From Akkermansia muciniphila (GTDB taxonomy: Bacteria > Verrucomicrobiota > Verrucomicrobiia > Verrucomicrobiales > DEV007), in the NCBI GenBank assembly GCA_945883495.1, contig CAMCXS010000026.1, forward strand, positions 1 through 64,000: a stretch of 64,000 bases of DNA, written 5' to 3'. Of the stretch, positions 133-14,074 are shown piece by piece. Position 1 is the first letter of the stretch. Every line of letters begins with the position of its first letter. The notes beneath the pieces were generated by a model. It did not search any database and was not told the origin of the DNA. It saw only the letters and a program-made list of their open reading frames with translations. A program made the position numbers and the translations under genes.

Positions 133-972
133 TCAGGAAGCTCTAAGTATGCGTCCGATTTCGGCATCGACCATCATCGTGAAATCGCCGTACATTCCGA
201 CAGTGCTTTGGTTAAGAAATAAGGGCTCGGGCAACCATGGCGTGTGCGGGCCCGTGAGAGCGCAATAGAGAAGAAACGGTTTATGACTGTCTTGATTTGC
301 CGCGGCTTGAGAGTTGAGGAATTGAATGGCTTCATTGGTCAGGGTGGGAAGCACCTCGGAGAGATTCATGTGAGGTGCGATGCCGCCAGCGCGCCAAAAT
401 GCGCCTTGGATTGGCGACCAACCCTCTGATTGGTTCGCTGCGATCTTTTCTGTTGGTGGTAAGACGGCGCGATCACCGCGAATGTAAAAGTAGGGAGGAA
501 TATCAGTGGACGCTCGCAAGCCGAAGAAAGTATCAAAACCGTGCGCAATGGGACCGCCTGACATGCGCTGATCGTAACCGTTTTCCTGAAAGCCGAGATG
601 CCATTTTCCCACCATTGCAGTGCGATACCCTTGTGACTTGAGCAATGAGGCGATGGTCATCTGACCTTCGGTGATGAGTGGTTGTTTCGTCCACTTTGAA
701 ACATCAGTGCGAAAGGGATAACGTCCAGTCATCAGCCCATAGCGCGACGCATGGCAGAACGGGCCTGGTGCATGGGCATCGGTAAAGCGAATGCCTTCTC
801 TGGCGATTCGGTCGATGTGTGGAGTCGATATTTTCGATTTTGAATTGTAGCAACTCGCATCGCCATAGCCCATATCATCCACCATTAGTATTAGAATATT
901 GGGCTTATGCGCAGCGAGTAACTTCAAAGACGAAATTACGAGCGTGAAAACTGCGATGAAGAGGATTTTCAT
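133..972 (-). CDS. sulfatase-family protein, N-terminal catalytic domain only (279 aa; probably truncated or degenerate)
   Basis: Signal peptide MKILFIAVFTLVISSLKLLAA. Alkaline-phosphatase-like sulfatase N-terminus (NILILMVDDMGYGD, GKWHLG). Active-site segment is C-H-A-S-R-YGLMTGR, with Ala where the canonical C-x-P-x-R has Pro. The ORF stops at 133 after only 279 aa; typical sulfatases are 450-550 aa. The remaining 132 nt to the window edge look non-coding. Confidence 0.55.
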   Translation of the reverse strand: MKILFIAVFTLVISSLKLLAAHKPNILILMVDDMGYGDASCYNSKSKISTPHIDRIAREGIRFTDAHAPGPFCHASRYGLMTGRYPFRTDVSKWTKQPLITEGQMTIASLLKSQGYRTAMVGKWHLGFQENGYDQRMSGGPIAHGFDTFFGLRASTDIPPYFYIRGDRAVLPPTEKIAANQSEGWSPIQGAFWRAGGIAPHMNLSEVLPTLTNEAIQFLNSQAAANQDSHKPFLLYCALTGPHTPWLPEPLFLNQSTVGMYGDFTMMVDAEIGRILRAS

Positions 973-984
973 TTTTCGTATCTT

Positions 985-1872
985 TCAAGCTAACTCAATT
1001 GCATGCCGCAAGGGGATGATCACTTCAAATTGCGGCATGAATTTCTGCGTGTCATGCTCACGGCGTCGCGCGATGATCTGTGTGGCTCCCGCTTGAAATT
1101 CCAGCAAGCATGATTGACTGCTACCCGTTTTGTAGGCGTGACTCATCGAGGCGACATTGATGTAGGTTGTATCTCTGACGCGCGCGATGTGCTTTTCGCT
1201 GTAAGGAGTGTGGTGTTCGTGCCCACTGAGCCAAAGTGCGATGTCCGATTTGGCCATAATCGCAGCAATGCGGTCAGCAGGGTGGAGGTAGCGCTGGGCA
1301 TTATCGGTGCGGAAGGTGGTGTCCTTTGCCCCTTGGTGAGAACAGACAATGATGTTCTTGCCCTTGTGCTTGGCGAGTTCGGCTTCGAGCCAGTCACAAC
1401 TTTTCGGCGTGAGTTCTCCCGGAACGCCTGCCTTTTCATCAGAGAGAAAGATCCAAACAAGATTGCCATCGACCACCGCGTACGGATCAGTGCTGCGAAT
1501 TGACTTGATGTATAAATCCGCATTGCCCCCATGATACTCATGATTACCCGCTACTTCATACCAAGTGCGGATGCCGCTGCCATCCCGTGTGGTGATGTAG
1601 TTCTTGAGTTGTTGTTCGTTGCCACCATGAGTGATGTCGCCCAGCGTCAGGGCATAGGCAATATCGGAATGTTCCTTTTGCATGTCCTTGCAGGCAAGGG
1701 AAAACCATTCGGCGCCATCCTTACCACCTTCCACAAGGCCGGAATGCAGATCAGACAGTATCCACACTTTGCGCAGCTTGCCAGCGGGCGAGAAGGATGA
1801 CTGTTGCGCTCCCAGTGTTCCTACTACAGCAGCACTGGCGGATAGTTGAATAAATTGTCGTCTATTTTTCAT
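985..1872 (-). CDS. Tat-secreted metallophosphoesterase (calcineurin-like phosphoesterase)
   Basis: Twin-arginine signal (RRQFIQLSASAAVVGTLGA). Metallophosphatase motifs VWILSDLHSG, LTLGDITHGG, VAGNHEY and LSGHEHH. Only 6 nt from the upstream gene and 12 nt from the downstream gene, so probably co-transcribed. Confidence 0.75.
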   Translation of the reverse strand: MKNRRQFIQLSASAAVVGTLGAQQSSFSPAGKLRKVWILSDLHSGLVEGGKDGAEWFSLACKDMQKEHSDIAYALTLGDITHGGNEQQLKNYITTRDGSGIRTWYEVAGNHEYHGGNADLYIKSIRSTDPYAVVDGNLVWIFLSDEKAGVPGELTPKSCDWLEAELAKHKGKNIIVCSHQGAKDTTFRTDNAQRYLHPADRIAAIMAKSDIALWLSGHEHHTPYSEKHIARVRDTTYINVASMSHAYKTGSSQSCLLEFQAGATQIIARRREHDTQKFMPQFEVIIPLRHAIELA

Positions 1873-1878
1873 GAAATA

Positions 1879-3189
1879 TTATTGTTTTTGTTCTTTTTGG
1901 GGGCGTTCAGGCCGAGATGTCTGCATCGACCGCTCACCACGGAGCAGGCGGGCGCCTTCGCCTGTTAGCCATAAATAATAATCACTGGGTAGTCCTTCGT
2001 AGGTGAGAAATCGGTTAGGGCCCACGGGCGGATTGTTTGTGCATTTGAAGATCGCAGTGCCTTCATCGACTTCATCGAACATGGCGACATAGATCATAGC
2101 GGCACCGGCTTTTTTTGCAGCGGCAAATTGAGTCCACAAAAATTCGCCTCTGAGTCGGGGGATTTTATCTAACGGATCTTGCGGCTTTAAATTGTGCCAA
2201 CTGAATCCGGGAAATACGACCGGTAGAAAATCGATTGAATGATCACTGCACCACTTTATATCATCAGGGTAGTATTTTTCCGCATGAGCACTCGCTTTCG
2301 CGGGAGTGGTGTAGCGCCCCGGTGTCCAAGGACCGATGATATCGGCGAGTTTTAATAATTCATGGAACGCAGGATCGTTCACGGCATCGCGGTTTTTCTC
2401 TCTCCAACCCGTGGGTACTCCGAGCATAACGGCGCAGCCATCGGCTTTGAAAAATTCGATAAGCGCTCGGCATTCCTTGAGTGTGTAATTTCGTCCATCA
2501 TTAAAACCAATACCCCATATCGCGATGAGAGGCTTTCCTTCATGATGCAAGTAAGCGGGATCCTTGCCCATGTGCATCTTGTCACGCAGCATTTTCCAAT
2601 CATCCGATACGCGAGTCGTATCGCCAGCTCGCAATCCGCTGAGATCATACATCAGGGCGTAGGCACGGCCATAGACATTCGCACCCTCGCGGCAGCTCGA
2701 AAGCACCACATCTTTATGATGTCGTGTGGATTCATTTCTTAGCCCATTGGCGAAGCGTTGCACAAAGGCCCCATCGATGCCGTAATCCGTCATCCACTGA
2801 AAATGCCGCAACACTGTTGCGCGATTGTAAGAACTAAATACGTATGCCATTTCACCATTCGCCAATTTGAAGCCGGTGGCATAGCGCTCCGCTGGCGTGG
2901 TCTCTGTCATGTCTGGCCATAGATCGACGGTGACATTTCCCGGGGCAAAGTGCTTCGCACGATCGCGCGCCCAGTGCGTCCAGCCAAGATCGGCACCATC
3001 GTCTCTGCAATTGAACCAGCCTTGGTAACCGGCCATTACTTTTCCTTTGAGAGTGCTGCAGTCCACACCCTTGTTACTCGTGCCTTGATAGGGGACTAGC
3101 GGATTTGGCATCGCCTCCGCATAAACGAATGCTGAAAGTACAATGCTAGCCAAAATCGTGATGGAAATTTTTCTCATGATGAGGTTCAA
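1879..3189 (-). CDS. secreted glycoside-hydrolase-like protein (TIM-barrel type; GH71/GH99-like is a guess)
   Basis: 436-aa ORF with an N-terminal signal peptide (ISITILASIVLSAFVYAEA). The motif GYQGWF and Asp/Glu/Trp-rich segments are typical of secreted glycosidases. The family assignment is from memory, not from a search. Confidence 0.55.
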   Translation of the reverse strand: MNLIMRKISITILASIVLSAFVYAEAMPNPLVPYQGTSNKGVDCSTLKGKVMAGYQGWFNCRDDGADLGWTHWARDRAKHFAPGNVTVDLWPDMTETTPAERYATGFKLANGEMAYVFSSYNRATVLRHFQWMTDYGIDGAFVQRFANGLRNESTRHHKDVVLSSCREGANVYGRAYALMYDLSGLRAGDTTRVSDDWKMLRDKMHMGKDPAYLHHEGKPLIAIWGIGFNDGRNYTLKECRALIEFFKADGCAVMLGVPTGWREKNRDAVNDPAFHELLKLADIIGPWTPGRYTTPAKASAHAEKYYPDDIKWCSDHSIDFLPVVFPGFSWHNLKPQDPLDKIPRLRGEFLWTQFAAAKKAGAAMIYVAMFDEVDEGTAIFKCTNNPPVGPNRFLTYEGLPSDYYLWLTGEGARLLRGERSMQTSRPERPQKEQKQ

Positions 3190-3367
3190 GGCGTGAATTT
3201 ACAGTTCTTTTCAATGCAAAAAATACCTATATCCCATCAGCCTGATGCAACAAGAAGAGAATGCGTCAGCACGCATGCTACTCATCCATCTTAAATGAAC
3301 CATGCTGTAACATTCCCAACCAAAATGCCTCTTGACAGAACATGTCGGTAATCATTTCCTGACTTCC

Positions 3368-5464
3368 ATGAAAGTTGCCGATACTTTACTAGCACTCGAT
3401 CCTGTAACTTGGATTGTTATCATTGTCATCCTCGTCGCCCTGGTTCCCATTGGATTAATGTTGATTCTCTGCATCCGCAAAATTCAGCCAGGCCGCGCGG
3501 GATTGAAAACCGGATGGGGTGGTTTGAAAGTATCATTCGACTGGATGGTCCGTGTGCCCTTGCTGCAGAGCTACCACGTCATGGACATTTCCGTGAAAAA
3601 ACTGGAGATCGCTCGTAAGGGACAAGATGGTCTGGTCTGTAAGGATAACATCCGCGCCGATATCACGGTGGCGTTCTACATCCGCGTCGATGCCACACCC
3701 GATAGTGTGCGAAAAGTAGCGCAGATGCTGACTCCTGAGCGGGTATCCGATATGGGCCAGCTTCGTGAACTCTTCGAGGCGAAATTTTCCGAAGCTCTTA
3801 AAACCGCTGGCAAACAAATGGAGTTCCACGAACTCTTCACCGAGCGTCTGCGTTTTCGAGATGAAATCCAAACCACCATCGGTAAGGACCTCGATGGCTT
3901 CCTGCTTCAGGATGTCGCCATCGACTACCTTGAACAAACCCCGCTCGAAAATCTTGATCCGAACAACGTTCTCGATTCCGAAGGTATCAAGAAGATCACC
4001 CAGATCACTCAACGCGAGCGCGTGGTGGCGAATGAGTTCACCCAGCGCGCGCAGGTGCAGGTCGAGAAGGAAAATGCCGATGCAGACATCGCCAAGCGCG
4101 AGCAAATCCGTCGCAACGAAGAAGACACCGCAAAACAAAACCGTGCCATCACTGAAATCCGCGCCAACGAAGAAGCGGAGTCGCGCAAAGTCATCGAGGC
4201 CCGCCGCAGCGAGGTGGAATCGAAGCGCCTCGAAACGGAGGAGGCCATCCACCTGCGCACGGAAGACATGAACCGCGCGGTGCAAGAGCGCGGCTACACC
4301 GTCCGCAAGGAGAAGGAGCGCCTCGAACAAGAAGCCATTCAGGAGGGCGAAGAAGCCCGCGTTCGTCGCGAGCGCACTGTCGCGCTGGCCACGATGGACA
4401 AGGAAGTCAAAGTCGCCGAAGCCGCTGTGGAGGTGGAGCGCAAGCGTGCCATTGTCGTCGCCGAGCAGAAGGCTGTAGTCCAACAAGAGGAAGAGAAGAC
4501 GAACATCGAAGCCCGCATGACCGCCGAGCGCGTGCGCGATGTCACATTGATCGAAGCGGAGATGCTTGCGAAAAAAGATCAGGTCGAAAAAGTCGTCGCA
4601 TCGGAAGCACAGAAGGAAGCCCAGAAAAACATCGCCGAAGCCGAGAAAATCAAACTCGTCACCGCTGCCGAAGCTGGTCGCGAAGCCGCCCTGCGCGATG
4701 CTGAGCGCATGCAAACGATGGCCGAAGCCGAGTCTCTCGCCAGCGATAAAAAACGCCACGCCATGGAGCAAGAAGCCGAAGGCATGGCAGCTCATGAAGC
4801 CGCCCCCGGACTTGCCGAGGCGAAAGTCATCGTCGCGAAGGCAAATGCCCGTCTCGCCGAAGCCGCAGCCGTCCGCGAAAACGAAGCGGCGATTGCTTCC
4901 GGCATCGAAGCCAAGGGCAGCGCTGAAGCGAAGTCCATCGAGGAAAAAGCCAAGGCAATGAAACTTCTCCACGATGCGGGCCAACAGCACGAAGAATTCC
5001 GCCTCCGCCTCAACAAAGATCGCGACGTCGAACTCGCTGCCATCCACGTCGAGCGCGATATTGCCGCCGCTCATTCCGGCCTCGTCGGCGAGGCGCTCAA
5101 GCACGCCAAGATCGACATCGTGGGTGGTGAGAATGATTTCTTCGAGAAAATTGTTCGCTCCGTCGGTCGTGGCAAATCAGTGGACCGCATGATGGCAAAC
5201 AGCACCACTCTTACCGATATCAAAAACACCTTCTTCGATGGCGGCTCGCCCGAGCAATTCAAGGCGCGCCTCTCGCAATGGGTGGACGATTTCGGCATCA
5301 AGAGTGAGGATTTGAAAAACCTCACCATCGCGGCACTGCTCACACGCATGATCGCCGGCAGCAAGGATAGCGCATTGCAAAACATTCTTCGCAGCGCGAT
5401 GGATACCGCTCGCGATGTTGGTCTCGCAGATGCAAAGGCATCGGATGTGTTGGATGTGAAATAA
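3368..5464 (+). CDS. flotillin / SPFH (band-7, YqiK-type) membrane-scaffold protein
   Basis: The track ORF 3332-5464 begins with TTG; the first ATG at 3368 gives MKVADTLLALDPVTWIVIIVILVALVPIGLM, an N-terminal TM helix. An SPFH core follows (RADITVAFYIRVD...), then about 350 aa of E/A/K/R-rich coiled coil (EA-repeat region) and a C-terminal flotillin tail. Confidence 0.85.
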   Translation: MKVADTLLALDPVTWIVIIVILVALVPIGLMLILCIRKIQPGRAGLKTGWGGLKVSFDWMVRVPLLQSYHVMDISVKKLEIARKGQDGLVCKDNIRADITVAFYIRVDATPDSVRKVAQMLTPERVSDMGQLRELFEAKFSEALKTAGKQMEFHELFTERLRFRDEIQTTIGKDLDGFLLQDVAIDYLEQTPLENLDPNNVLDSEGIKKITQITQRERVVANEFTQRAQVQVEKENADADIAKREQIRRNEEDTAKQNRAITEIRANEEAESRKVIEARRSEVESKRLETEEAIHLRTEDMNRAVQERGYTVRKEKERLEQEAIQEGEEARVRRERTVALATMDKEVKVAEAAVEVERKRAIVVAEQKAVVQQEEEKTNIEARMTAERVRDVTLIEAEMLAKKDQVEKVVASEAQKEAQKNIAEAEKIKLVTAAEAGREAALRDAERMQTMAEAESLASDKKRHAMEQEAEGMAAHEAAPGLAEAKVIVAKANARLAEAAAVRENEAAIASGIEAKGSAEAKSIEEKAKAMKLLHDAGQQHEEFRLRLNKDRDVELAAIHVERDIAAAHSGLVGEALKHAKIDIVGGENDFFEKIVRSVGRGKSVDRMMANSTTLTDIKNTFFDGGSPEQFKARLSQWVDDFGIKSEDLKNLTIAALLTRMIAGSKDSALQNILRSAMDTARDVGLADAKASDVLDVK

Positions 5465-5529
5465 GTTCGCCTTGCCGCGTGTCGGGTCGTCCCGTTGTCA
5501 CCGCTGGATTCCTGTGAATTCCCCGCTCC

Positions 5530-8500
5530 ATGTCCGAAGATCCTAACAAGCCAAGCACCACCGCTGCCGTTGCCGATGCCCCCAAAGCAGACGGTGCCGC
5601 AGAGGCTCTTGGCAGTGCGACGTATGAGATCATCCGCCAACGCCTAACGGTGCAGGGTGAGAGCCTTCACGAGCGCATGGCCAAGCTCGATGCCCGCCGC
5701 GCCGAGGTATTTGGTTCCATCGAATCAAAGCTGCTTCAAGCCGATCGCATCGTCACCCAGCACAATTGCACACCGCGCGACATGGTGCAGCTCGGTGATG
5801 ACCGATTTCTCTTCGCTTTCAACGTCCGCTTCGGGCTGAAAAAGGAAATGGAATTGGCGGATGTGTTCGCCGTCTATCGTCGCGATCCCGAGACTGGCTC
5901 GTTCCGCGAAGATTCGCTCGACGTCATCAACGACCCGCGTTTTGTCACCGATTTCAAACGACTCTACAACGTCTATGAACGCAGCTCGTTCCGCAAGTTC
6001 GCGGTGCGCGAAGGCAAGTTGTTCATGAAATTCGGCACCGGCGCGGCGTTGACGGACTTCGCCGCGTTCGTATGGGAATTCAATGATGGCAATTTAAAAT
6101 TCCTCGACGGTCGCGCGGAGGCAGAGTTCCGACGCATTGGTTATCCACCGGCTCATGAATTCCGCTGGCAGAAGCCGGATCGAGAATCGTATCGCTACGG
6201 CGATCACTCGCATATCTCCATTCAGGACCGCGTGTTTGTTGAGTGCGTGAACGGCGATTTCACCGTAAAGGTGGAAGACAACACCAAGGACGGCGAAGGC
6301 ATTTTCCGCGAGCCAGTCGATGATCGCCACCAGAAACTCGACGATGCGGAAATCGAGTACGCCATTGTCAATCAGCTCATCATTCTCAAGGTTCGTCCTT
6401 ATAAAGAGAAGGATTTTCGTTATTACATTTTCAACGAAAAACAGCACAGCGTTGTGCGTGCGGATTCCATCGGTGAGTCCTGTGTGTTGCTTCCCGAGAG
6501 TCACGGCTTGATGTTTCCCGATGGCTATTATCTAGCGACGGGGGAGTTAAAACAATTCGACTGCCGCATCCGCAGCATGCAGATCGAGCGAGTGATTCAG
6601 GCCCCGAATGGCGAGGATGTGCTCTATGTTTTCTACAATCGCAGCACCGGTGATTATGCATTGATGCCCTACCGCCTGATCCAGCAGCGCGTCGATGAAC
6701 GCATCACTTGCCATGGATTTTCGTTGTTCCCGAATGGTCACTTGTTGCTGTTCCGTGCCGATGCCGAGCCGCAAAAGCACCACATGATTCAGCTCCGGCA
6801 AACGCCGTACCATATGCCAGGATACGAGCCCGAGGGAAGGCGAGATGCATTTCTCTATCAGGTCGGCAATCGCGAAGTGGTGCGCTGTCTTGCCGAGTGC
6901 AATGAAGTACTCACGCTCATCCGCCGCGAGGAGCCTTATGCGGAGCTCTACACCGACCTTGTGCGCCGCTGCAGCGCCATTCTCGATTCCTACCCGTGGC
7001 TATCTCATGCCGATGGTTTCGCCATCGATGCCGCGCTGCGCGCCGTTGGCGAGGCCGCAGATCGTGCTGTGGATGAATTTGATCGCGTCACACGCATGCG
7101 CCGCGAGGCGGTGGAGCGCGTGGCAAAAGCTCGCAAGGAATGCGAACTGCGCATTCAAGAAATCCGCCGTGCAAATTTCGGTGCGCTCAATGATTACGTC
7201 GTGAATCTCGCCGCATTGCGCGGGCTGCGCGGCGAGCTGATTTCACTGCGCGAGGTGCGTTACGTGGTCGTTGCCGAAGTCGAGGCACTAGAGAAACAAG
7301 TCGTCGAGGAAGCAAAAACGCTATCCGAAAAATGCGTAGAGTTTTTACTCCGACCCGAATCTCTCGAACCCTATCGCAAGGCGGCTATGGCGCATCTTGC
7401 CGCCGTCGATGGCGTGCGCACGGTCGCCGAAGGAAAAAAAATCGAAGAAGCCGCCGGCAAAGAAGGCGGTGAATTGGAAATGCTCATCGAAGTCGTGAAC
7501 GGTCTTCGCATCGAGGATGCTACGCAGACGACGCGCATCATCGATGGCATCACCACCGTTTACTCTACGCTCAATCAAGTACGTGCCGCCCTGCGCAATC
7601 GCCTTTCTGATCTCGCATCCACCGAAGGTGCGGCGCAGTTCGCGGCGCAAATGAAATTGTTAGGCCAAGCGGCATCGAGTTATCTCGATCTCTGCAATAC
7701 GCCGGCGAAGTGCGATGAATACCTCAACCGACTCTCGGTGCAAATCGAAGAACTCGAAGGCCGCTTCGCAGGGTTCGATGAATTTACCGTCAGCCTCGCC
7801 GAGCGCCGCACCGAACTTTACGAAGCCTTCGAGCAACGCAAAGTCGCGCTGGTCGAAGAGCGCAACCGCCGCGCCAATTCGCTGTCCACTGCCTCCGAGC
7901 GCATTCTCAAGGTGATCGTCAATCGACTGGATGGCTTCAAGGTGCTTGATGAAATCAATGCCTATATGGCATCGGACATGATGGTCTCGCGCGTTCGTGA
8001 AACCGTTGCGCAGTTGTTAGAGTTAGGCGATGCCCCGCGAGCCGATGCCCTCGAGTCGAAGTTGAAAAGCGCCCAACAAGAAGCCGTGCGCCGACTCAAG
8101 GACAGGCAGGAACTTTTCGCCGATGGGGATAATATCATCCGCCTCGGCAAGCACAGCTTTAACGTCAGCACCCAGCCACTCGATCTAACAGTTGTGCTGC
8201 GCGAAGGCGTGCAACACGTTCACATCACCGGCACGCAGTACTTCGATCCGATTACTGATGAGGAGTTTGTCGCCACCCGCGATGTGTGGGATCAGGAGCT
8301 CGTTTCGGAAACGCGCGACGTCTATCGCGCAGAATACCTTGCGTGGCAAATGCTCAAGACTTGGAACGGCGAAGCACTGCCCACAGCGGAAGAAGAAACG
8401 TTAGAACGCGTCCAACAGTTCATGGGCGCGCGTTACGTCGAAGGCTACACGCGCGGCATTCACGATATCGATGGCGCAAAAATCCTCACCGCGCTCATCA

Positions 8501-10830
8501 GCACTACGCGTGAGCTAGGCCTCGCCCGTGCCCACCCGCTGGCCCGCGCGTTTGCACTCGTGTGGTGGCATCGCTTTTGCCCAGAAGAGACACGCACCTT
8601 GTGGGCATCGAAACTCTCGTCCTTCGCCCAACGCAATCGCCTCTTCCCCGGTGATCCGATCCAAGGCGAATACATCACCGCCTTGCAATCCCTACTGCGC
8701 AGTTTTGCGGAAACGACGGGCCTCTATCCCGCCGAGCGCGCGGATGCCGCAGGTGAATATCTTTTTCATCAACTCTCTGCCGGTTGGCCCGCCGCCGTCA
8801 CCCGCGAGGCCGATCAACTCACCACCGAATTCGCGCGCCAGATTACGCACGGCGGCGCGGAAAAGACTTTTGCCGAAGGCCGCGCTGCTCTCGCCGATCA
8901 CCCAGCCAGTGAACTCGCCCTCGTGCGCGATTGGTTGCGTGGCTACATTTTTTCCTCTGCCAAAGACGGCGCCGCACCGGACTTCCGCCACCACGAAGAA
9001 GCCTGCGCGCTGATCTTTTGCGGCGATGCCCTCCAGCGCCACGTCGTTAACGCCATCACTACCCACACGCTCACCGGCATGAAAGGCGCCCATGCGCGCA
9101 TGCAGGGGGGCGAATACAGTTTCGATCATCTCGATTTCCACGAACGCCTCGCTCGCCATGAGCGCGAAGTTGTCCCGCGCTTCGAGGCCTTTCACGCTCT
9201 CAAACAAGCACGCATTACCCGCGAACGCGCCTTGCTGCGACTCAATGAATTCAAGCCGCAGGTGCTCAGTTCCTTCGTGCGGAATCAGCTCATCGATGAC
9301 GTTTATCTACCGCTCATAGGCGATAACCTCGCCAAACAAATCGGTGCCGCTGGTGATAGCCGTCGCACCGACCTGATGGGCCTGCTGCTTGTTATCTCGC
9401 CGCCGGGCTATGGCAAGACGACCCTGTTAGAATACATCGCCAGCCGCCTCGGTATCGCCTTCATCAAAGTGAACGGCCCCGCTCTCGGACACAACGTCGT
9501 TTCGCTCGACCCCGAAGAAGCGCCGAACGCCGCAGCGCGTTCGGAAATCAACAAGCTCAACCTCGCGCTAGAAATGGGCGACAACGCCATGATCTGCGTG
9601 GATGACATTCAGCACTGCAATCCCGAGTTTTTGCAAAAGTTCATCTCCCTCTGCGACGGCCAACGCCGCATCGAAGGCGTGTGGCGCGGGCGCAGCCGGA
9701 CCTATGATTTGCGCGGGCGAAAAATCGTCGTCGTCATGGCGGGAAATCCTTACACCGAGAGCGGCACGCGCTTTCAAATTCCGGACATGCTCGCGAACCG
9801 CGCCGATACCTACAACCTCGGCGACATCATCGGTAATAGCGCGGGGGCCTTCAAGGCCAGCTACATCGAGAATGCCGTCACCTCGAATCCCGCCCTCGTG
9901 GCCCTAGCCAACAAGAGCCAAAAAGACGTGCGCGCTTTTATCCGCATCGCCGAGACCGGTCAGCGCGATGGCATCACTTTCGAGGCTAGTTACAGCTCAC
10001 GTGAGATCGAGGAAATCCTCTCGGTGATGAAAAAACTCGTCGCCATCCGCGATGTGGTGTTAAGTGTGAATCAACAATACATCCACTCCGCCGCGCAGGC
10101 CGATGAGTTCCGCACCGAGCCGCCGTTCCGCTTGCAGGGCTCTTATCGAAACATGAACCGCATGACCGAAAAAGTCGTCGCCATCATGAACGATGCCGAA
10201 GTGCGCGGGCTCATCATCGATCACTACCGCGGCGAATCCCAAACCCTCACCACCGGCACCGAGGCGAACTTTTTCAAGTTCAAAGAAATCATCGGCGATC
10301 TAACAGCAGAAGAGCAAACCCGCTGGGACGACATCAAGCGCACCTTCCAGCGCAACACCATCGCGAAAGGCGCTGGCGGCAATGAGGACCCTGTAGGACG
10401 CGTCGTCGCCCAACTCCATGGCTTCCAAACTGGCCTCGAAGGCATCCGCGAAACCATCGCCGGCCAACTCGCCCACCCACAGCCCGCCCCACAAATCAAT
10501 TTCGACTTCGCCCCCATCGGCAAAGCCATCGATAGCCTACGCGCTGACCTCATCCGACCCACCGGCGAGATCCCCGAACTGCGCAGTGTGCTCCACGAGC
10601 TAGAGATGGTTCACAGCACGCTCGCCACTTTAAAAGACCTAGCCGCCCGCCAACGCGAACACCTCGACGATGCACGACGTTTGTTAGACGAGCGCGCTCG
10701 TCAAGGCTCCGTGGAAATTGAAGTCACCCAAGACCTCTTAGCCAACGAATCCGCTTTTCTCGAACATTTCCACAAAGCACTCGCCGATGCCAAAGAAGCG
10801 AAGAAAGCAAAAGATCCTACTAAAGAATAA
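5530..10830 (+). CDS. giant (1766 aa) multidomain protein with a C-terminal AAA_5 (MoxR/McrB/dynein-related) ATPase module
   Basis: Uninterrupted 5.3 kb ORF starting 66 nt after the flotillin stop. Residues 1-480 are beta-rich and Gly/Asp/Phe/Tyr-rich; residues about 480-1250 are largely alpha-helical coiled coil. Near nt 9370-9900: Walker A VISPPGYGKTTLLEYI, Walker B MICVDDIQHCNPEFLQKF (D-D rather than D-E), sensor-1 KIVVVMAGNPYTE, and PDMLANRADTY, matching the AAA_5 pattern hhhhDEinrA...atmNP...LlsRF. About 300 aa of C-terminal helical tail. Confidence 0.8.
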   Translation: MSEDPNKPSTTAAVADAPKADGAAEALGSATYEIIRQRLTVQGESLHERMAKLDARRAEVFGSIESKLLQADRIVTQHNCTPRDMVQLGDDRFLFAFNVRFGLKKEMELADVFAVYRRDPETGSFREDSLDVINDPRFVTDFKRLYNVYERSSFRKFAVREGKLFMKFGTGAALTDFAAFVWEFNDGNLKFLDGRAEAEFRRIGYPPAHEFRWQKPDRESYRYGDHSHISIQDRVFVECVNGDFTVKVEDNTKDGEGIFREPVDDRHQKLDDAEIEYAIVNQLIILKVRPYKEKDFRYYIFNEKQHSVVRADSIGESCVLLPESHGLMFPDGYYLATGELKQFDCRIRSMQIERVIQAPNGEDVLYVFYNRSTGDYALMPYRLIQQRVDERITCHGFSLFPNGHLLLFRADAEPQKHHMIQLRQTPYHMPGYEPEGRRDAFLYQVGNREVVRCLAECNEVLTLIRREEPYAELYTDLVRRCSAILDSYPWLSHADGFAIDAALRAVGEAADRAVDEFDRVTRMRREAVERVAKARKECELRIQEIRRANFGALNDYVVNLAALRGLRGELISLREVRYVVVAEVEALEKQVVEEAKTLSEKCVEFLLRPESLEPYRKAAMAHLAAVDGVRTVAEGKKIEEAAGKEGGELEMLIEVVNGLRIEDATQTTRIIDGITTVYSTLNQVRAALRNRLSDLASTEGAAQFAAQMKLLGQAASSYLDLCNTPAKCDEYLNRLSVQIEELEGRFAGFDEFTVSLAERRTELYEAFEQRKVALVEERNRRANSLSTASERILKVIVNRLDGFKVLDEINAYMASDMMVSRVRETVAQLLELGDAPRADALESKLKSAQQEAVRRLKDRQELFADGDNIIRLGKHSFNVSTQPLDLTVVLREGVQHVHITGTQYFDPITDEEFVATRDVWDQELVSETRDVYRAEYLAWQMLKTWNGEALPTAEEETLERVQQFMGARYVEGYTRGIHDIDGAKILTALISTTRELGLARAHPLARAFALVWWHRFCPEETRTLWASKLSSFAQRNRLFPGDPIQGEYITALQSLLRSFAETTGLYPAERADAAGEYLFHQLSAGWPAAVTREADQLTTEFARQITHGGAEKTFAEGRAALADHPASELALVRDWLRGYIFSSAKDGAAPDFRHHEEACALIFCGDALQRHVVNAITTHTLTGMKGAHARMQGGEYSFDHLDFHERLARHEREVVPRFEAFHALKQARITRERALLRLNEFKPQVLSSFVRNQLIDDVYLPLIGDNLAKQIGAAGDSRRTDLMGLLLVISPPGYGKTTLLEYIASRLGIAFIKVNGPALGHNVVSLDPEEAPNAAARSEINKLNLALEMGDNAMICVDDIQHCNPEFLQKFISLCDGQRRIEGVWRGRSRTYDLRGRKIVVVMAGNPYTESGTRFQIPDMLANRADTYNLGDIIGNSAGAFKASYIENAVTSNPALVALANKSQKDVRAFIRIAETGQRDGITFEASYSSREIEEILSVMKKLVAIRDVVLSVNQQYIHSAAQADEFRTEPPFRLQGSYRNMNRMTEKVVAIMNDAEVRGLIIDHYRGESQTLTTGTEANFFKFKEIIGDLTAEEQTRWDDIKRTFQRNTIAKGAGGNEDPVGRVVAQLHGFQTGLEGIRETIAGQLAHPQPAPQINFDFAPIGKAIDSLRADLIRPTGEIPELRSVLHELEMVHSTLATLKDLAARQREHLDDARRLLDERARQGSVEIEVTQDLLANESAFLEHFHKALADAKEAKKAKDPTKE

Positions 10831-10903
10831 TTCCACTACACAGATTCAAAAAAATCTCTAAGATCCGTTAATCCGTCGTAAAAAAAGATACACTCATACC
10901 ATC

Positions 10904-11686
10904 ATGAAACAAATTATCAGGCGTGTGCAAACACTCAACGAACGGGCCTCCGAACTCACCGCCGTCGCAGGCCAACTGCCCCAACGCGTCGCCGAACTGC
11001 GCGAAGCAATGAAGGCGACCACTGGCGAGCTACAGACCTTGAAGTCCGATATCCAAGTCAACATCGCTGATCTCCAAATTGAACACGAAGACGATATCGG
11101 AGCCGCCTTAGTCGAGGTAGCCGGGCACGCTGCTGTTTTCCAACAAGCCGGATTTTTGTTAGACGGACTCGATGTTGAGGTCAGCCTTATCCAGCGCATC
11201 ATTGTGCAACTCAAACGCCAGAAGGACGTGGACCTTGGCAAAATCCAAGAACTGATCCAGCAATACCGTGACCAAGCCACCATGCGCGCCATCCTCTCGG
11301 CCATCTTCAAAGCGCGAACTATGGTAGACAACATCGAGATCGACGGACTTGAATACGAAAAACTCATCATCAGCATAGGCCCCGTGCCCACCATCCGTCT
11401 CAGTTGGCGCGACCGCAATGCGGCCTCCGTCGCCCAAGCATGGAAACCCACAGCTTCGCAACCTCTCACCATCGGAGCACAAACCTCATTCTTTGGTCCC
11501 GCGCTCCAACCCACACTCACCAGCGAAAAAGAATCGATTGGACCAGAAATTGCAGAGGAAGAAACACCGACCAACACCATCCCTGTAGCTCCGATCGCAC
11601 CAGTCAGACCTCCACCGCTACCGCAGGTACCAGTCGATCCACTCGCCCGCTTCAAAGTAATGCCTCACCTGAACCGCCCGCAGTAA
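10904..11686 (+). CDS. coiled-coil protein with Pro-rich C-terminal tail (hypothetical; third gene of the flotillin operon)
   Basis: Begins 74 nt after the giant gene on the same strand. The first 150 aa have heptad-like character (LNERASELTAVAGQLPQRVAELREAMKATTGELQTLKSDI...). C-terminus is PVAPIAPVRPPPLPQVPVDPLARFKVMPHLNRPQ. The ORF on the opposite strand (10894-11655) is S/T/W/C-rich nonsense. Confidence 0.55.
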   Translation: MKQIIRRVQTLNERASELTAVAGQLPQRVAELREAMKATTGELQTLKSDIQVNIADLQIEHEDDIGAALVEVAGHAAVFQQAGFLLDGLDVEVSLIQRIIVQLKRQKDVDLGKIQELIQQYRDQATMRAILSAIFKARTMVDNIEIDGLEYEKLIISIGPVPTIRLSWRDRNAASVAQAWKPTASQPLTIGAQTSFFGPALQPTLTSEKESIGPEIAEEETPTNTIPVAPIAPVRPPPLPQVPVDPLARFKVMPHLNRPQ

Positions 11687-11824
11687 GTGCCTCACGTCAC
11701 AGTTGGATAAACGAAAAGCAGAGGGTTTGCGAAAACGATGATGGGAAGCTTTGATGCCTTGACTGTCATATCGAAAAATAGACCCAAATACAGCTGCTCC
11801 TCCAAGGACAGACCAGACAACTAC

Positions 11825-12241
11825 CTAGACCACCAGACCCGCTACTCTGAACGTCCCTAGCTTCAGCGCGAAGAGCGGGGCAGTGGGATTGCCGCAAAAA
11901 AGGTGGGTGATACTCTGGCCTTTACCGACATCATTTGCCTCGAATGCTTGGATGATTTCATCGAGGAAACCATTGCTGTGCCTGAGGTTCTTCCGGTGCG
12001 CAGTGGTCGTTGCTATTGGTCTTTTGCCCCTGCGGGTGGCGTCCGCGCCGTCGCCGGTGGTGCCACCGCTCAGGAAATGGATGGCGCCGTCCCTGCGGAC
12101 GTAGCCAAGACCGAGATCAACATCGCCCGGGAGTTGCGGGCTTGGTGCGGGGTTGCCAATGTATGCATTCCGGTCACAAGCGGCCAGGAACCCCGCAAGG
12201 AGCAGGGCGAAAGCATGAGTGAGGATCGTTTGCCATTTCAT
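11825..12241 (-). CDS. small lipoprotein (hypothetical)
   Basis: Internal start MKWQTILTHAFALLLAGFLAAC gives a signal peptide plus lipobox. About 138 aa. Confidence 0.45.
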   Translation of the reverse strand: MKWQTILTHAFALLLAGFLAACDRNAYIGNPAPSPQLPGDVDLGLGYVRRDGAIHFLSGGTTGDGADATRRGKRPIATTTAHRKNLRHSNGFLDEIIQAFEANDVGKGQSITHLFCGNPTAPLFALKLGTFRVAGLVV

Positions 12242-12352
12242 GATGATGTGGGGTTGGACGAGGATTTGCGGGCGGAACTGCCCTTGAAACGCATCTGGAC
12301 GATTGTGGCGCATAAAGCCCAGTCGGTTGACTCTTCCGGGAGGACAACGGCT

Positions 12353-12889
12353 TCAGCCGCCAGCCCGATTGGCGGGCACGGCGGCTTTGCGTTTCAAAAA
12401 TTCGGCCTCGTCGATTTTCTTGAGAAGGAAGGGGGGCTGATCTTTCCCTCCCATTACGGTGATCTGCTGGTCCTTGATGAGGAGTTCCAGCTCCTGTTTC
12501 TTGTCAGCGGGGTCTGGGCTAATGGCGCGGACCTTGAGCGAACCGGCGGCTTTATCAGCAGCGAGGATTTCGTAGGCTACGACCGCGACTCCTTGTTCCG
12601 AATAGACGTGGACCTTTCCCAGTTCGACATGGAAGGTGATTTTTGAGAACTTCTCGGTTACGGCTTGGCTTTCTTCCTCCGGCATTCCCATTTTCTCGAT
12701 ATAAAACTTCACGAGGGCTTCCGTATCAGGTGCCCAGTAGCCGATGGCCTTTTTCTCCAGTTGCTTGGCGGCATCGCCGTTGGGCATTTCTGCGGCAGGT
12801 TTGGCCTCAGGCTTGGCCTCCGGTTCGGCAGCAGGGGCCAGGAGGGCGAGGGTGATCAGAGTGATGGTGGATATGGCGATGTTTTTCAT
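12353..12889 (-). CDS. secreted hypothetical protein with (PEAK)n N-terminal repeat
   Basis: Signal peptide MKNIAISTITLITLALLAPAA followed by EPEAKPEAKPAAE and a globular domain. The plus-strand ORF 11903-12646 overlapping this gene and the previous one is judged antisense. Confidence 0.55.
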   Translation of the reverse strand: MKNIAISTITLITLALLAPAAEPEAKPEAKPAAEMPNGDAAKQLEKKAIGYWAPDTEALVKFYIEKMGMPEEESQAVTEKFSKITFHVELGKVHVYSEQGVAVVAYEILAADKAAGSLKVRAISPDPADKKQELELLIKDQQITVMGGKDQPPFLLKKIDEAEFLKRKAAVPANRAGG

Positions 12890-12971
12890 TTGTTTTGGTG
12901 GTTGGATTGTGTTGATTGCGTGTGATGTCTGGGGATTTTTCTGGGACGGGTTGTCGAATTAGGGCTCGATT

Positions 12972-13517
12972 TTATGGGCTATCGGCCAAGTTTGGCATCA
13001 AACGATTTCGCGTTTTTGCCGGCATGCTTCCTTTCAGTCGATGCCGTGTGCCGTTGAGTGTCATGTCCATGGTGACGTGTAGCACGGAATTTTCCCGATA
13101 GGGGATACCGTTTTTTTCGCGATCCGGATATCCATGGATCTGTTGCGTCCAGAAATTCTTGTTTTGGTTTTCGACAAGAACTTTCTCGCGAGAGTCATCC
13201 AAATGATAGGCGAAGGAATGGATTTGGATCGATGCAACATAGGGACTCTGGCCGAATTTCTTTCCCTTTTCGCGGACATGGAATTGCAACGCAAGGTATG
13301 GGTCTGTCGTGAGTTTCTTGAAACCCGGCACGACACGCTCCGAGTCAGGATACCAGGCAGGAAAGGTGCTTACCGAGAGCTCGTTTTTCGGATCGAGCGG
13401 AGCCACCCATTCAGCATATTCCGACGTTTGGATCTGGGCACAGCTCGTGATCAAACCAACCAAGCCGAATGATGACAAGGCGAGGGCGCATTGGTATAGT
13501 TTGAATTTCATGGGCAT
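12972..13517 (-). CDS. lipoprotein (hypothetical)
   Basis: MPMKFKLYQCALALSSFGLVGLITSC: signal peptide plus lipobox. About 180 aa. Confidence 0.5.
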   Translation of the reverse strand: MPMKFKLYQCALALSSFGLVGLITSCAQIQTSEYAEWVAPLDPKNELSVSTFPAWYPDSERVVPGFKKLTTDPYLALQFHVREKGKKFGQSPYVASIQIHSFAYHLDDSREKVLVENQNKNFWTQQIHGYPDREKNGIPYRENSVLHVTMDMTLNGTRHRLKGSMPAKTRNRLMPNLADSP

Positions 13518-13561
13518 TGGCTTGTTTTGAGTGCGTGGCGTAGGAAGGGAAAATGTTACCG

Positions 13562-14074
13562 CTATTCCTCCCATTCGGTAGCGGCTTGGATATCGCCATC
13601 ACTCGTGACATAGGTTTGCAAGAGTTCGAGCGCTTTCTCCGCGCTGGGAATGGGTTGCGACTTTTTCACGATCGCGCTCGTCGCGCCTCCGAGCATGGGT
13701 CCGGGTCGGGACCAGATCGCAGAGAAGCCTTTTTGATCACCTGACGCAGACTTGAGCTTGAGTGACCGTCCGGCATCCAATTCGATCATGAAAGATGCTT
13801 TCGCTGATTCGTTGCTCCACTCCATTTCTCTAAAGCGCTCCTCCATGAGTTGTCGAGTCTTGGGGTTTTGCGTGATCGAATTGGCTTCGTCCGATTGCTC
13901 GAGACCGTTGGCAGCGATCCATGTGCGTACGAATTTCGGGTAATCCGCAGACACGGTTGACGATGGTGACTCCGTCGGTGCTGCGCCACCTCGTTCGTCT
14001 TTCTTTTCGCAACTGTTCAAGACAACTATTGCAGGCAATGCGAACGAGATCATAATAGTTCTTAGTATTTTCAT
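13562..14074 (-). CDS. lipoprotein (hypothetical)
   Basis: MKILRTIMISFALPAIVVLNSC: signal peptide plus lipobox. 170 aa. Confidence 0.5.
   Translation of the reverse strand: MKILRTIMISFALPAIVVLNSCEKKDERGGAAPTESPSSTVSADYPKFVRTWIAANGLEQSDEANSITQNPKTRQLMEERFREMEWSNESAKASFMIELDAGRSLKLKSASGDQKGFSAIWSRPGPMLGGATSAIVKKSQPIPSAEKALELLQTYVTSDGDIQAATEWEE

Follow-up and report, generated by a model that had tools for sequence, protein, structure and literature searches.

Within positions 1-64,000 of Akkermansia muciniphila (DEV007) contig CAMCXS010000026.1 (assembly GCA_945883495.1), the whole 64,000-nt stretch being termed here the window, three consecutive open reading frames (ORFs) on the + strand encode a flotillin of 698 aa (gene 1, 3368-5464), a giant AAA+ protein of 1766 aa (gene 2, 5530-10830) and a small protein of 260 aa (gene 3, 10904-11686). 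The locus is almost certainly a verrucomicrobial, Luteolibacter-like member of a conserved bacterial flotillin-ATPase module. All three ORFs are genuine genes with conserved homologues at 31-100% identity, and their nearest named relatives are from Luteolibacter and other Verrucomicrobiota metagenome-assembled genomes (MAGs). Features given below for the window are on the + strand unless stated otherwise. The start of gene 1 was taken as the ATG at 3368, an in-frame TTG at 3332 being a less likely alternative. An earlier note, made from the sequence alone, had described three + strand genes set between - strand genes; this arrangement was borne out, the - strand neighbours being a GH99-like gene on one side (1879-3189) and a small ORF on the other (11825-12313), but the gap lengths of 66 and 74 nt that it gave are 65 nt (5465-5529) and 73 nt (10831-10903, A-rich) by ORF coordinates. 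A consensus scan for the promoters or terminators that would separate the genes found no such site in either gap and RNA folding of the gaps was not better than that of shuffled sequence (z-scores 0.25 and -0.09 respectively), and so co-transcription of the three genes is plausible. A scan of 2800-12500 against Rfam matched no family.

Gene 1 was correctly called a flotillin in the earlier note and can now be given the subtype YqiK/FloT (SPFH2a), as judged from its homology to YqiK and its conservation across phyla. Identity to Escherichia coli YqiK is 31% over 458 aa (E 2e-41) and identity to the corresponding gene of L001, one of the related loci surveyed below, where it precedes the ATPase gene, is 76%. 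The single N-terminal transmembrane helix, SPFH domain and E/A-rich coil that had been reported were all found. Kyte-Doolittle windows exceeded 1.6 at the N-terminus only, defining one hydrophobic segment (windows across aa 2-36) with a membrane anchor at about aa 14-36 (WIVIIVILVALVPIGLMLILCI, 3407-3475). It is followed by the SPFH/Band_7 domain at aa 38-197 (3479-3958; Pfam PF01145, E 2.4e-11), for which the fragment aa 1-244 scored 44.5 bits against a cut-off of 23.6. An E/A/K/R-rich helical, coiled-coil-like region extends over about aa 210-540 (3995-4987), aligns with the coil of YqiK and is accompanied by a strong positive AT skew at 4001-5000. The C-terminal region (4988-5461) contains the blocks HEEFrLrLnK...AKIDIVGGE..FF and is conserved at 60-90% or more among 57 flotillins taken from ATPase loci of several phyla, and the N-terminal region shows 58% mean column identity across the loci of the module. 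No Pfam or NCBIfam model matched the C-terminal region, and the Pfam 'Flotillin' C-terminal model did not match its fragments even at E 1, though the AKIDIVGGE..FF block is present. The full-length protein gave no match in Pfam, NCBIfam or PADLOC scans, probably due to the E/A-rich region tripping the composition filter, and comparison with the PDB by sequence and family profiles returned nothing meaningful. On the - strand an ORF of 523 aa (3533-5104) lies antisense within the flotillin gene, and antisense ORFs of 700 aa, chosen by greedy ORF picking, likewise lie opposite the flotillin genes of L046, L049 and L050. The AT skew of the flotillin coding strand reaches 0.44, and the antisense ORF is most likely a by-product of a GAA/GCN-rich, stop-poor coding strand and not a gene.

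The product of gene 2 has no hydrophobic or transmembrane segment and is read as cytoplasmic. Pfam matches were obtained to DUF3686 (PF12458, aa 46-488, E 9.5e-162) and DUF7902 (PF25472, aa 611-692, E 4.3e-24), and the combination of these two domains with a single C-terminal AAA+ region is common to all homologues listed. Full-length members of the family are of 1,600-1,930 aa, with 41% mean column identity, and carry the NCBI product label 'DNA repair ATPase', while DUF3686 is described in Pfam as 'ATPase involved in DNA repair'. AlphaFold2 models of residues 1-700 and 840-1766, each built from an alignment of 41 sequences, had a mean predicted local distance difference test score (pLDDT) of 85.7 and 80.0 respectively. 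In the models a disordered stretch (residues 1-27) precedes a long N-terminal helix at aa 29-61 (5614-5712; pLDDT 85-96), and the core of DUF3686 at aa 67-424 (5728-6801) forms a divergent beta-propeller of about seven four-stranded units. A Foldseek search with the N-terminal model matched beta-propellers (the prolyl oligopeptidase propeller, LGI1 EPTP, WD40 proteins, Ctf4 and EED) at E of about 1e-5. The beta-rich N-terminal part noticed earlier therefore corresponds to this domain, but the coiled coil of some 800 aa that was said to follow it was not found. Its place is taken by antiparallel, spectrin-like helical bundles at aa 441-698 (6850-7623), which include DUF7902 (7360-7605), and by a conserved middle module (8134-9036; pLDDT 82-95) in which a small beta unit (aa 869-907) is followed by an all-helical globular domain (aa 933-1169). 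The middle module has no Pfam match, and D858, G873, F877, E927, R933, G976, H978, D979, D981 and R1006 in and around it are invariant, invariance in gene 2 referring throughout to 21 diverse members of the family.

The AAA+ core was delimited to aa 1249-1480 (9274-9969) from Pfam matches, invariant motifs and DSSP analysis of the model, the core as seen in the C-terminal model spanning aa 1286-1480. The motifs GYGKTT, VDDIQH, MAGNP and PDMLANRAD, read previously from the sequence, are all present and invariant across the family. They correspond to a Walker A motif SPPGYGKTT (aa 1290-1298, 9397-9423), a Walker B motif VDDIQH (aa 1357-1362, with D1358 and D1359), and a sensor-1 residue N1406 (MAGNP) followed by a candidate arginine finger R1424 (PDMLANRAD) at 9736-9807. 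Since the residues of Walker A (G1293-T1298), Walker B (D1358-D1359), sensor-1 (N1406) and the arginine (R1424) are invariant, the ATPase is probably active. A pre-sensor-1 beta-hairpin (aa 1380-1393) is placed by the model between the Walker B and sensor-1 strands. The firm label of AAA_5 that had been applied to this core proved to be only marginal. Over aa ~1266-1409 the AAA model scored higher (28.3 bits) than AAA_5 (25.3 bits, cut-off 22), RuvB_N also matched (20.1 bits), as did AAA_22 weakly, and a precomputed AAA_5 match exists for about half of the homologues. A Foldseek search with the core scored CbbQ and NorQ (MoxR), MCM, RuvB and FtsH about equally, at E of about 2e-5. Pfam scans of the three proteins and the flanking genes agreed with the view that gene 2 is neither NfeD nor a dynamin and has no vWA partner; no dynamin or GTPase model matched gene 2 and the context of its P-loop is that of AAA+ proteins. 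Beyond the core lie a lid and a conserved post-AAA helical region at aa 1490-1610 (9997-10359; YRTEPPFKLQGSYRNMN...ESQTLTTG), with invariant residues at 1514-1574 and pLDDT of 73-93, and finally long helices at aa 1611-1766 (10360-10827) that are modelled with low confidence (pLDDT 39-67) and poorly conserved; most loci from other phyla align with gene 2 only up to residue about 1640-1670. Searches of the PDB with the single sequence and the family profile found no solved structure related to gene 2 beyond the P-loop, and NCBIfam scans of protein fragments matched no model.

The distribution of the family was investigated by a scan of one genome per species, in which at least 585 genomes contained a relative of the ATPase and 80 loci were returned. 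A search of 1.84 billion proteins with the N-terminal 700 residues of gene 2 gave 850 cluster representatives at 50% identity. ORFs were called in all of the loci and searched with the window proteins and with profiles of neighbouring families, the count of flotillins being restricted to the 64 loci in which upstream DNA exceeded 2.5 kb and that of YqiJ to 59 loci. The loci listed are from Verrucomicrobiota, Planctomycetota, Bacteroidota, Desulfobacterota, Kiritimatiellota and Clostridia. The key observation from this survey was that 61 of 64 loci have a flotillin gene upstream of the ATPase gene and in the same orientation, with E values of 1e-100 or better for complete genes. In 46 of 69 loci no more than 400 nt separate the two genes, and in two loci they share 11 nt. 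The coupling of a flotillin to the giant AAA+ protein that the earlier note had proposed thus holds as synteny across six phyla, and also in the two plasmid records described below. A gene for a YqiJ-like protein was found directly upstream of the flotillin gene in 52 of the 59 loci. Proteins of this family, of ~225 aa, combine transmembrane helices with an acidic stretch, and their C-terminal part was interpreted as a beta domain of OB-like type; a Pfam YqiJ_N match at 0.005 and BLASTP to E. coli YqiJ at 3e-4 tie the family to YqiJ. The statement that gene 2 is not the canonical flotillin partner NfeD is consequently true of the protein but misleading for the module, in most loci of which an NfeD-like protein is encoded as well. 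YqiJ appears, from the gene content of the loci, to have been lost from the operon in the clade of the window, its absence there being a lineage-specific oddity.

Further genes recur around the pair. A pspA gene (Pfam E 4e-42) precedes the unit in 16 Bacteroidota loci, most of which also have a CesT_Tir_1 gene (E 7e-56), and in two loci from Phycisphaerae a PspA-like gene lies directly 3' of the ATPase gene, in the position taken by gene 3 in the window (L018 6790-7479 and L057 4766-5449; hhalign probability 90 against the Bacteroidota PspA profile). The ATPase family was also found in 13 plasmid records, which add Proteobacteria, Actinomycetota and Deinococcus to the groups above and come from Pseudomonas, Proteus, Vibrio, Photobacterium, Halomonas, Streptomyces, Nonomuraea, Deinococcus and Hymenobacter, and a flotillin is annotated beside the ATPase in both of the records that were inspected. 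The order on the Pseudomonas plasmid pQBR103 is PspA, rhomboid, DUF2491, DUF350, DUF1190, GspS (glutathionylspermidine synthase), hypothetical, SPFH, 'DNA repair ATPase', and that on the Streptomyces plasmid is hypothetical, 'flotillin family protein', 'DNA repair ATPase'. Taken with or without the CesT-like and yjf-type genes, the linkage to PspA in Bacteroidota, on at least one Pseudomonas plasmid and in some Planctomycetota assigns the module to the envelope and membrane-stress network.

A number of loci showed local variations. Genes of endonuclease type (DUF559 or the PD-(D/E)XK family PDDEXK_3) are found in Bacteroidota and Verrucomicrobiota between the flotillin and ATPase genes (L040 9389-9946, L044 9521-9943, L032 9507-9926 and L052 9538-9912) or, in L026 (818-1258), immediately before the ATPase gene. 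They have the look of selfish elements inserted into a gene pair that is tight elsewhere. In three Bacteroidota loci the ATPase gene is followed by DUF4178, an unassigned gene and DUF350 (L033 7084-9295, L061 4687-6896 and L070 6277-8643). The ATPase gene of a Rubripirellula MAG is divided into three ORFs (L039 9917-15232) and a flotillin gene into two (L027 7385-9471), and these are presumed from the sequence to be pseudogenes or assembly frameshifts.

The earlier note had taken the module as a candidate for an undescribed system, but an operon of the same kind has been published and gene 2 belongs to a family with Pfam entries (DUF3686/DUF7902). Ravi et al. (2024, mSystems; bioRxiv 2020; PMC11237479) reported an operon of a band-7/flotillin protein, a beta-propeller/coiled-coil/AAA+ protein and YqiJ/YuaF, with or without a CesT-PspA dyad, and assigned it by comparative genomics to PSP-linked membrane dynamics. 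In the same study 'abbreviated operons' without PspA were found to be widely distributed, a PLD/HKD hydrolase was noted in some operons (proteobacterial versions), DUF4178 and DUF350 genes were listed as components of polyamine-linked PSP operons, and AAA+ remodelling of membrane polymers was discussed, as with Vps4 and ESCRT-III (PMC11237479). Both the flotillin and the ATPase (propeller, helical region, AAA+) have the same architecture in that operon as in the window and occur in the same order, and the Bacteroidota (Flavobacteriia) loci surveyed here correspond gene for gene to the Dokdonia example of Ravi et al. (Table S3). The window differs in having neither YqiJ/YuaF nor the CesT-PspA dyad, so that it is at most an abbreviated form, and in gene 3, which is not listed among the operon components in the main text of PMC11237479. 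The published description is computational, without a name, structure or experiment for the operon. The literature searched contained nothing on DUF3686 or PF12458, nothing on a 'DNA repair ATPase' with flotillin or SPFH proteins and no experimental study of the flotillin-ATPase association; the ATPase is not mentioned in an SPFH evolution paper (2009) or a Pseudomonas SPFH study (2026), and no known partner unrelated to SPFH proteins emerged for the family. The flotillin-ATPase association is therefore already published as a computational observation and the window holds no new kind of system. What is apparently new, as far as gene content can tell, is a small observation, the exchange of YqiJ for gene 3 in one clade.

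Comparison with better known systems helps to define what is distinctive. Gene 1 is homologous to YqiK of the E. coli yqiJ-yqiK pair, which with B. subtilis yuaF-floT represents the SPFH2a plus NfeD-like arrangement, and most of the related loci keep a YqiJ-like gene upstream; E. coli K-12, however, has no ATPase gene after yqiK, YqiK is of 553 aa as against 698 aa for gene 1, and the window lacks a yqiJ-like gene. In HflK/C-FtsH and prohibitin-m-AAA an SPFH scaffold is likewise genetically or physically coupled to a membrane AAA+ enzyme, but gene 2 has neither the protease domain nor the transmembrane helices of FtsH, and the flotillin is of YqiK type and not of HflK/C type. The classical clade of AAA+ proteins, which includes FtsH, is without a pre-sensor-1 hairpin, and the hairpin in the model would put the gene 2 core outside that clade. 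With MoxR/AAA_5 proteins (CbbQ, NorQ, RavA) gene 2 shares the marginal AAA_5 match, CbbQ and NorQ among its best fold matches and the layout of sensor-1 and arginine finger, 'NP...IPDMLANR'. It is, however, about six times larger and without a vWA partner, MCM, RuvB and FtsH were scored equally, and its model shows the pre-sensor-1 hairpin but none ahead of helix 2 (helix-2 insert). ESCRT-III/PspA with Vps4 offers a functional analogy, a membrane polymer scaffold with a dedicated AAA+ remodeller, and PspA is linked to the module in several phyla. Gene 2 differs from Vps4 in having no MIT domain (no Pfam match) and a core that is not of the classical clade, again on account of the hairpin, and here the adjacent scaffold gene encodes a flotillin, there being no PspA gene in the window.

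Gene 3 encodes a soluble protein with no transmembrane segment and a narrow distribution. No family match at useful thresholds was found in Pfam, NCBIfam or PADLOC for the protein or its fragments, and 66 homologues were collected, down to 31% identity, with Luteolibacter as the sole organism name among their sources. The alignment divides the protein into an N-terminal helix at aa 1-60 (conserved as MKRIVRRVQ.LNERAAELTAAAGQLP.RVAELREA...), a core at aa 78-170 (11135-11413; AGFLLDGLD.EVSP, RAILSAILKAR and IDGLDY.KL.IGIGPVP.IRLCWR), a variable low-complexity linker and a C-terminal motif PPPLP...DPLARFKVMP at aa 236-258 (11609-11677), the alignment ending DPLARFKVMP.L.R. The proline-rich tail reported in the earlier note is thus real, and ends in a conserved peptide. 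The trio that the note treated as a unit did not fare as well, as gene 3 occurs in a single narrow clade of Verrucomicrobiota and has the reverse orientation in two of its seven loci, and the conserved unit is (YqiJ)-flotillin-ATPase. Homologues of gene 3 occur in 7 of 81 loci (L001-L004 and L006-L008), whose ATPases are the closest to that of the window among the matches listed, and in all seven gene 3 adjoins the ATPase gene at its 3' end, the two genes being convergent, on opposite strands, in L006 and L007. None of the six gene 3 loci with enough upstream DNA has YqiJ (the upstream DNA of L007 is too short) and none of the 52 loci with YqiJ has gene 3; L001-L004, L006, L008 and L078 are the flotillin-bearing loci without a YqiJ-like gene. 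The last of these, from Rhodopirellula, is the only listed locus outside the gene 3 clade with a flotillin but no YqiJ-like gene, and at the upstream position of YqiJ it encodes a protein of 381 aa with no Pfam match (6568-7713, + strand). The gene 3/YqiJ pattern is consistent with replacement of a third subunit, and gene 3 is most likely a clade-specific adaptor or regulator kept beside the ATPase gene.

Several other identities for gene 3 were tried and rejected. A relocated or divergent YqiJ/NfeD is contradicted by an hhalign probability of 0.05 and the lack of a transmembrane segment. A weak Pfam PspA line (E 1), together with the PspA-like genes 3' of the ATPase gene in Phycisphaerae, raised the possibility of a divergent PspA/ESCRT-III protein, for which the hhalign probability was 1.7, compared with 90 for the Phycisphaerae proteins. 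Comparison of gene 3 with further downstream neighbours (DUF4178-like, PLD and CesT) showed no relation, and the gene 3 tail is unfit in spacing for an ESCRT MIM-like motif, only PPLP and DPLARFKVMP being conserved. Genes of the PLD/HKD type (HxK...GSYNWT) lie beside the module at L006 16610-17314 (+), L007 9259-10113 (+) and L030 15501-15977 (-), in L006 and L007 just past the inverted gene 3, and agree with the hydrolase mentioned in PMC11237479.

The explanation favoured overall combines the identity of the locus with a remodelling mechanism and is held at about even confidence. The mechanism taken by itself, in which a cytoplasmic AAA+ protein acts on flotillin assemblies, and possibly on PspA, in membrane stress, is put forward tentatively, at somewhat below an even chance. 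Flotillin subunits would assemble at the inner membrane, on its cytoplasmic side, into a cage or ring, and the giant protein would oligomerise through its AAA+ domain and dock on the flotillin assembly, possibly also on PspA polymers, through the propeller and helical arms, which in the models appear suited to protein binding. ATP hydrolysis would then serve to build, reshape or dismantle the scaffold when the membrane is stressed or under repair. The segment after beta2 in gene 2 (NGPALGHNVVSLDPEEAPN) shows no aromatic pore loop, and for this reason a remodeller that works like RuvB or MoxR is suggested rather than a threading unfoldase. In the clade of the window YqiJ would be gone from the operon and the soluble gene 3 protein, with its conserved C-terminal peptide, kept by the ATPase. 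The suggestion of a remodeller is based on three precedents, namely the cytoplasm-facing SPFH-NfeD cages, of which E. coli YbbK-YbbJ is one that protrudes into the cytoplasm (cited in PMC13086221), the recruitment of PspA by the SPFH protein YdjI in B. subtilis (cited in PMC10936438), and remodelling of ESCRT-III by Vps4. A bolder and rather doubtful version is that bacterial flotillins have in the DUF3686 protein the energy-consuming partner that they have so far lacked, which docks on the cage through its propeller and spectrin-like arms, drives cage assembly or disassembly and hands over to PspA in membrane repair, with gene 3 replacing YqiJ in one clade. If true, this would be a bacterial analogue of Vps4/ESCRT-III logic made from unrelated parts, with gene 3 as a soluble adaptor bearing a DPLARFKVMP docking peptide.

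A number of observations weigh against the remodelling explanation. The Walker B motif is family-wide of the form hhhhDD and not DE (window nt 9589-9615, aa 1354-1362; 21 members), which may point to ATP hydrolysis that is unusually slow or regulated, or to a role as a switch. Assignment of the core to an AAA+ clade by Foldseek failed, MoxR, MCM, RuvB and FtsH being indistinguishable, and contact of the ATPase with flotillin or PspA is inferred. Three of the 64 loci (L016, L023 and L062) have the ATPase without a nearby flotillin and with unrelated upstream genes, and no YqiJ, PspA or CesT ORF is present within the 64-kb window. The evidence for a role of gene 3 consists of its adjacency and its anticorrelation with YqiJ, both in one clade, and the pattern may reflect a single evolutionary event; L005, of the same clade, has no gene 3. 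It is possible, though on balance doubtful, that gene 3 is an unrelated lineage-specific neighbour and that the functional unit is a two-gene pair, as would fit its presence in so few loci, its absence from a member of its own clade, its opposite orientation in L006 and L007 and its want of a recognisable domain. Against this, gene 3 directly follows the ATPase stop codon in 7 of 7 loci although the other flanks differ, the adjacency persists through inversion, its presence co-varies with loss of YqiJ, and the C-terminal motif is strongly conserved and typical of a docking peptide.

A second alternative, considered unlikely, is that the ATPase is confined or gated by a flotillin cage, which would include YqiJ in the lineages that have it. 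The clients of the ATPase would then be other membrane-proximal proteins or complexes, and not the flotillin, in quality control like that of HflK/C-FtsH or in assembly chaperoning inside a microdomain. The precedent is the HflK/C cage that encloses FtsH (PMC13220708), and band-7, CesT and AAA+ proteins have been interpreted as chaperone-like assembly factors (PMC11237479). The tight synteny of flotillin and ATPase would fit, and a propeller with helical arms could bind varied clients. Gene 2, however, has no protease or other effector domain, no transmembrane anchor and no aromatic pore loop after beta2. A hexamer of 1766-aa subunits would probably be very large beside the lumens of known SPFH cages.

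Defence is an improbable alternative to remodelling by the ATPase. The module would here be an anti-phage or conflict system carried on mobile DNA, a membrane sensor-effector acting for example by abortive infection through membrane perturbation, and the 13 records from large plasmids, the PLD/HKD genes of L006, L007 and L030, the small nuclease genes (DUF559, PDDEXK_3 and Uma2) and DUF4258 gene near some loci and the variability of the accessory genes could be read in that way. However, ten of these 13 records are non-mobilizable, several entries catalogued as plasmids measure 1.7-11.9 Mb, no phage record contained a homologue of the ATPase, and the nuclease genes lie between the pair in few loci only, with the look of insertions noted above. 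The sole match to PADLOC-DB v2 was a 15-bit P-loop match of gene 2 to mad8 (E 0.003), with none for genes 1 and 3. Conservation across phyla is high (41% for gene 2 and 58% for the N-terminal region of the flotillin), unlike that of fast-evolving defence genes, and the recurring neighbours are PspA, CesT and yjf-type stress genes and not defence islands. Finally, it is highly improbable that gene 2 is a RuvB- or SMC-type DNA repair ATPase with an incidental linkage to flotillin, as the Pfam description and NCBI product names, the weak RuvB_N/RuvB matches (E 6e-4 to 3e-3) and a RuvB-like Walker B context might suggest, for the similarity to RuvB is confined to about 45-60 residues around the P-loop, Pfam scans of gene 2 and its fragments detected no DNA-binding domain, no repair genes recur in the neighbourhood, membrane-protein partners are present in 95% of loci and the label is without support in the literature searched.

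The role of bacterial flotillins and the control of their assemblies are unsettled, and deletions of them often have weak phenotypes (PMC13086221). A near-obligate ATP-driven partner would offer experiments a direct way into the dynamics of flotillins and into their link with membrane repair of the PspA type. A relative of the ATPase occurs in at least 585 species genomes, tractable genera with such a protein being for example Pseudomonas (plasmid pQBR103), Proteus, Vibrio, Streptomyces, Flavobacterium and Gimesia, and the public label of 'DNA repair ATPase' is probably wrong and not to be trusted. To a specialist in the PSP comparative-genomics literature the locus itself will be unsurprising, but the biology of so widespread a pair is testable, and the exchange of gene 3 for YqiJ could help to define the surface of the machine that is served by a third subunit.

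The other genes near the module in the window are on the - strand. A sulfatase, a calcineurin-like phosphoesterase, the GH99-like glycosidase and a 753-aa membrane protein with a GATase1_like domain are encoded at 133-3189 and 14222-16483, have no recognisable tie to the flotillin module and are replaced by different flanks in L001. Between the module and the second of these groups lie four successive small ORFs of 162, 178, 200 and 170 aa (11825-14074), without Pfam matches, several of which have hydrophobic N-termini read as signal-peptide or lipoprotein-like, and which may be a set of lineage-specific secreted proteins.

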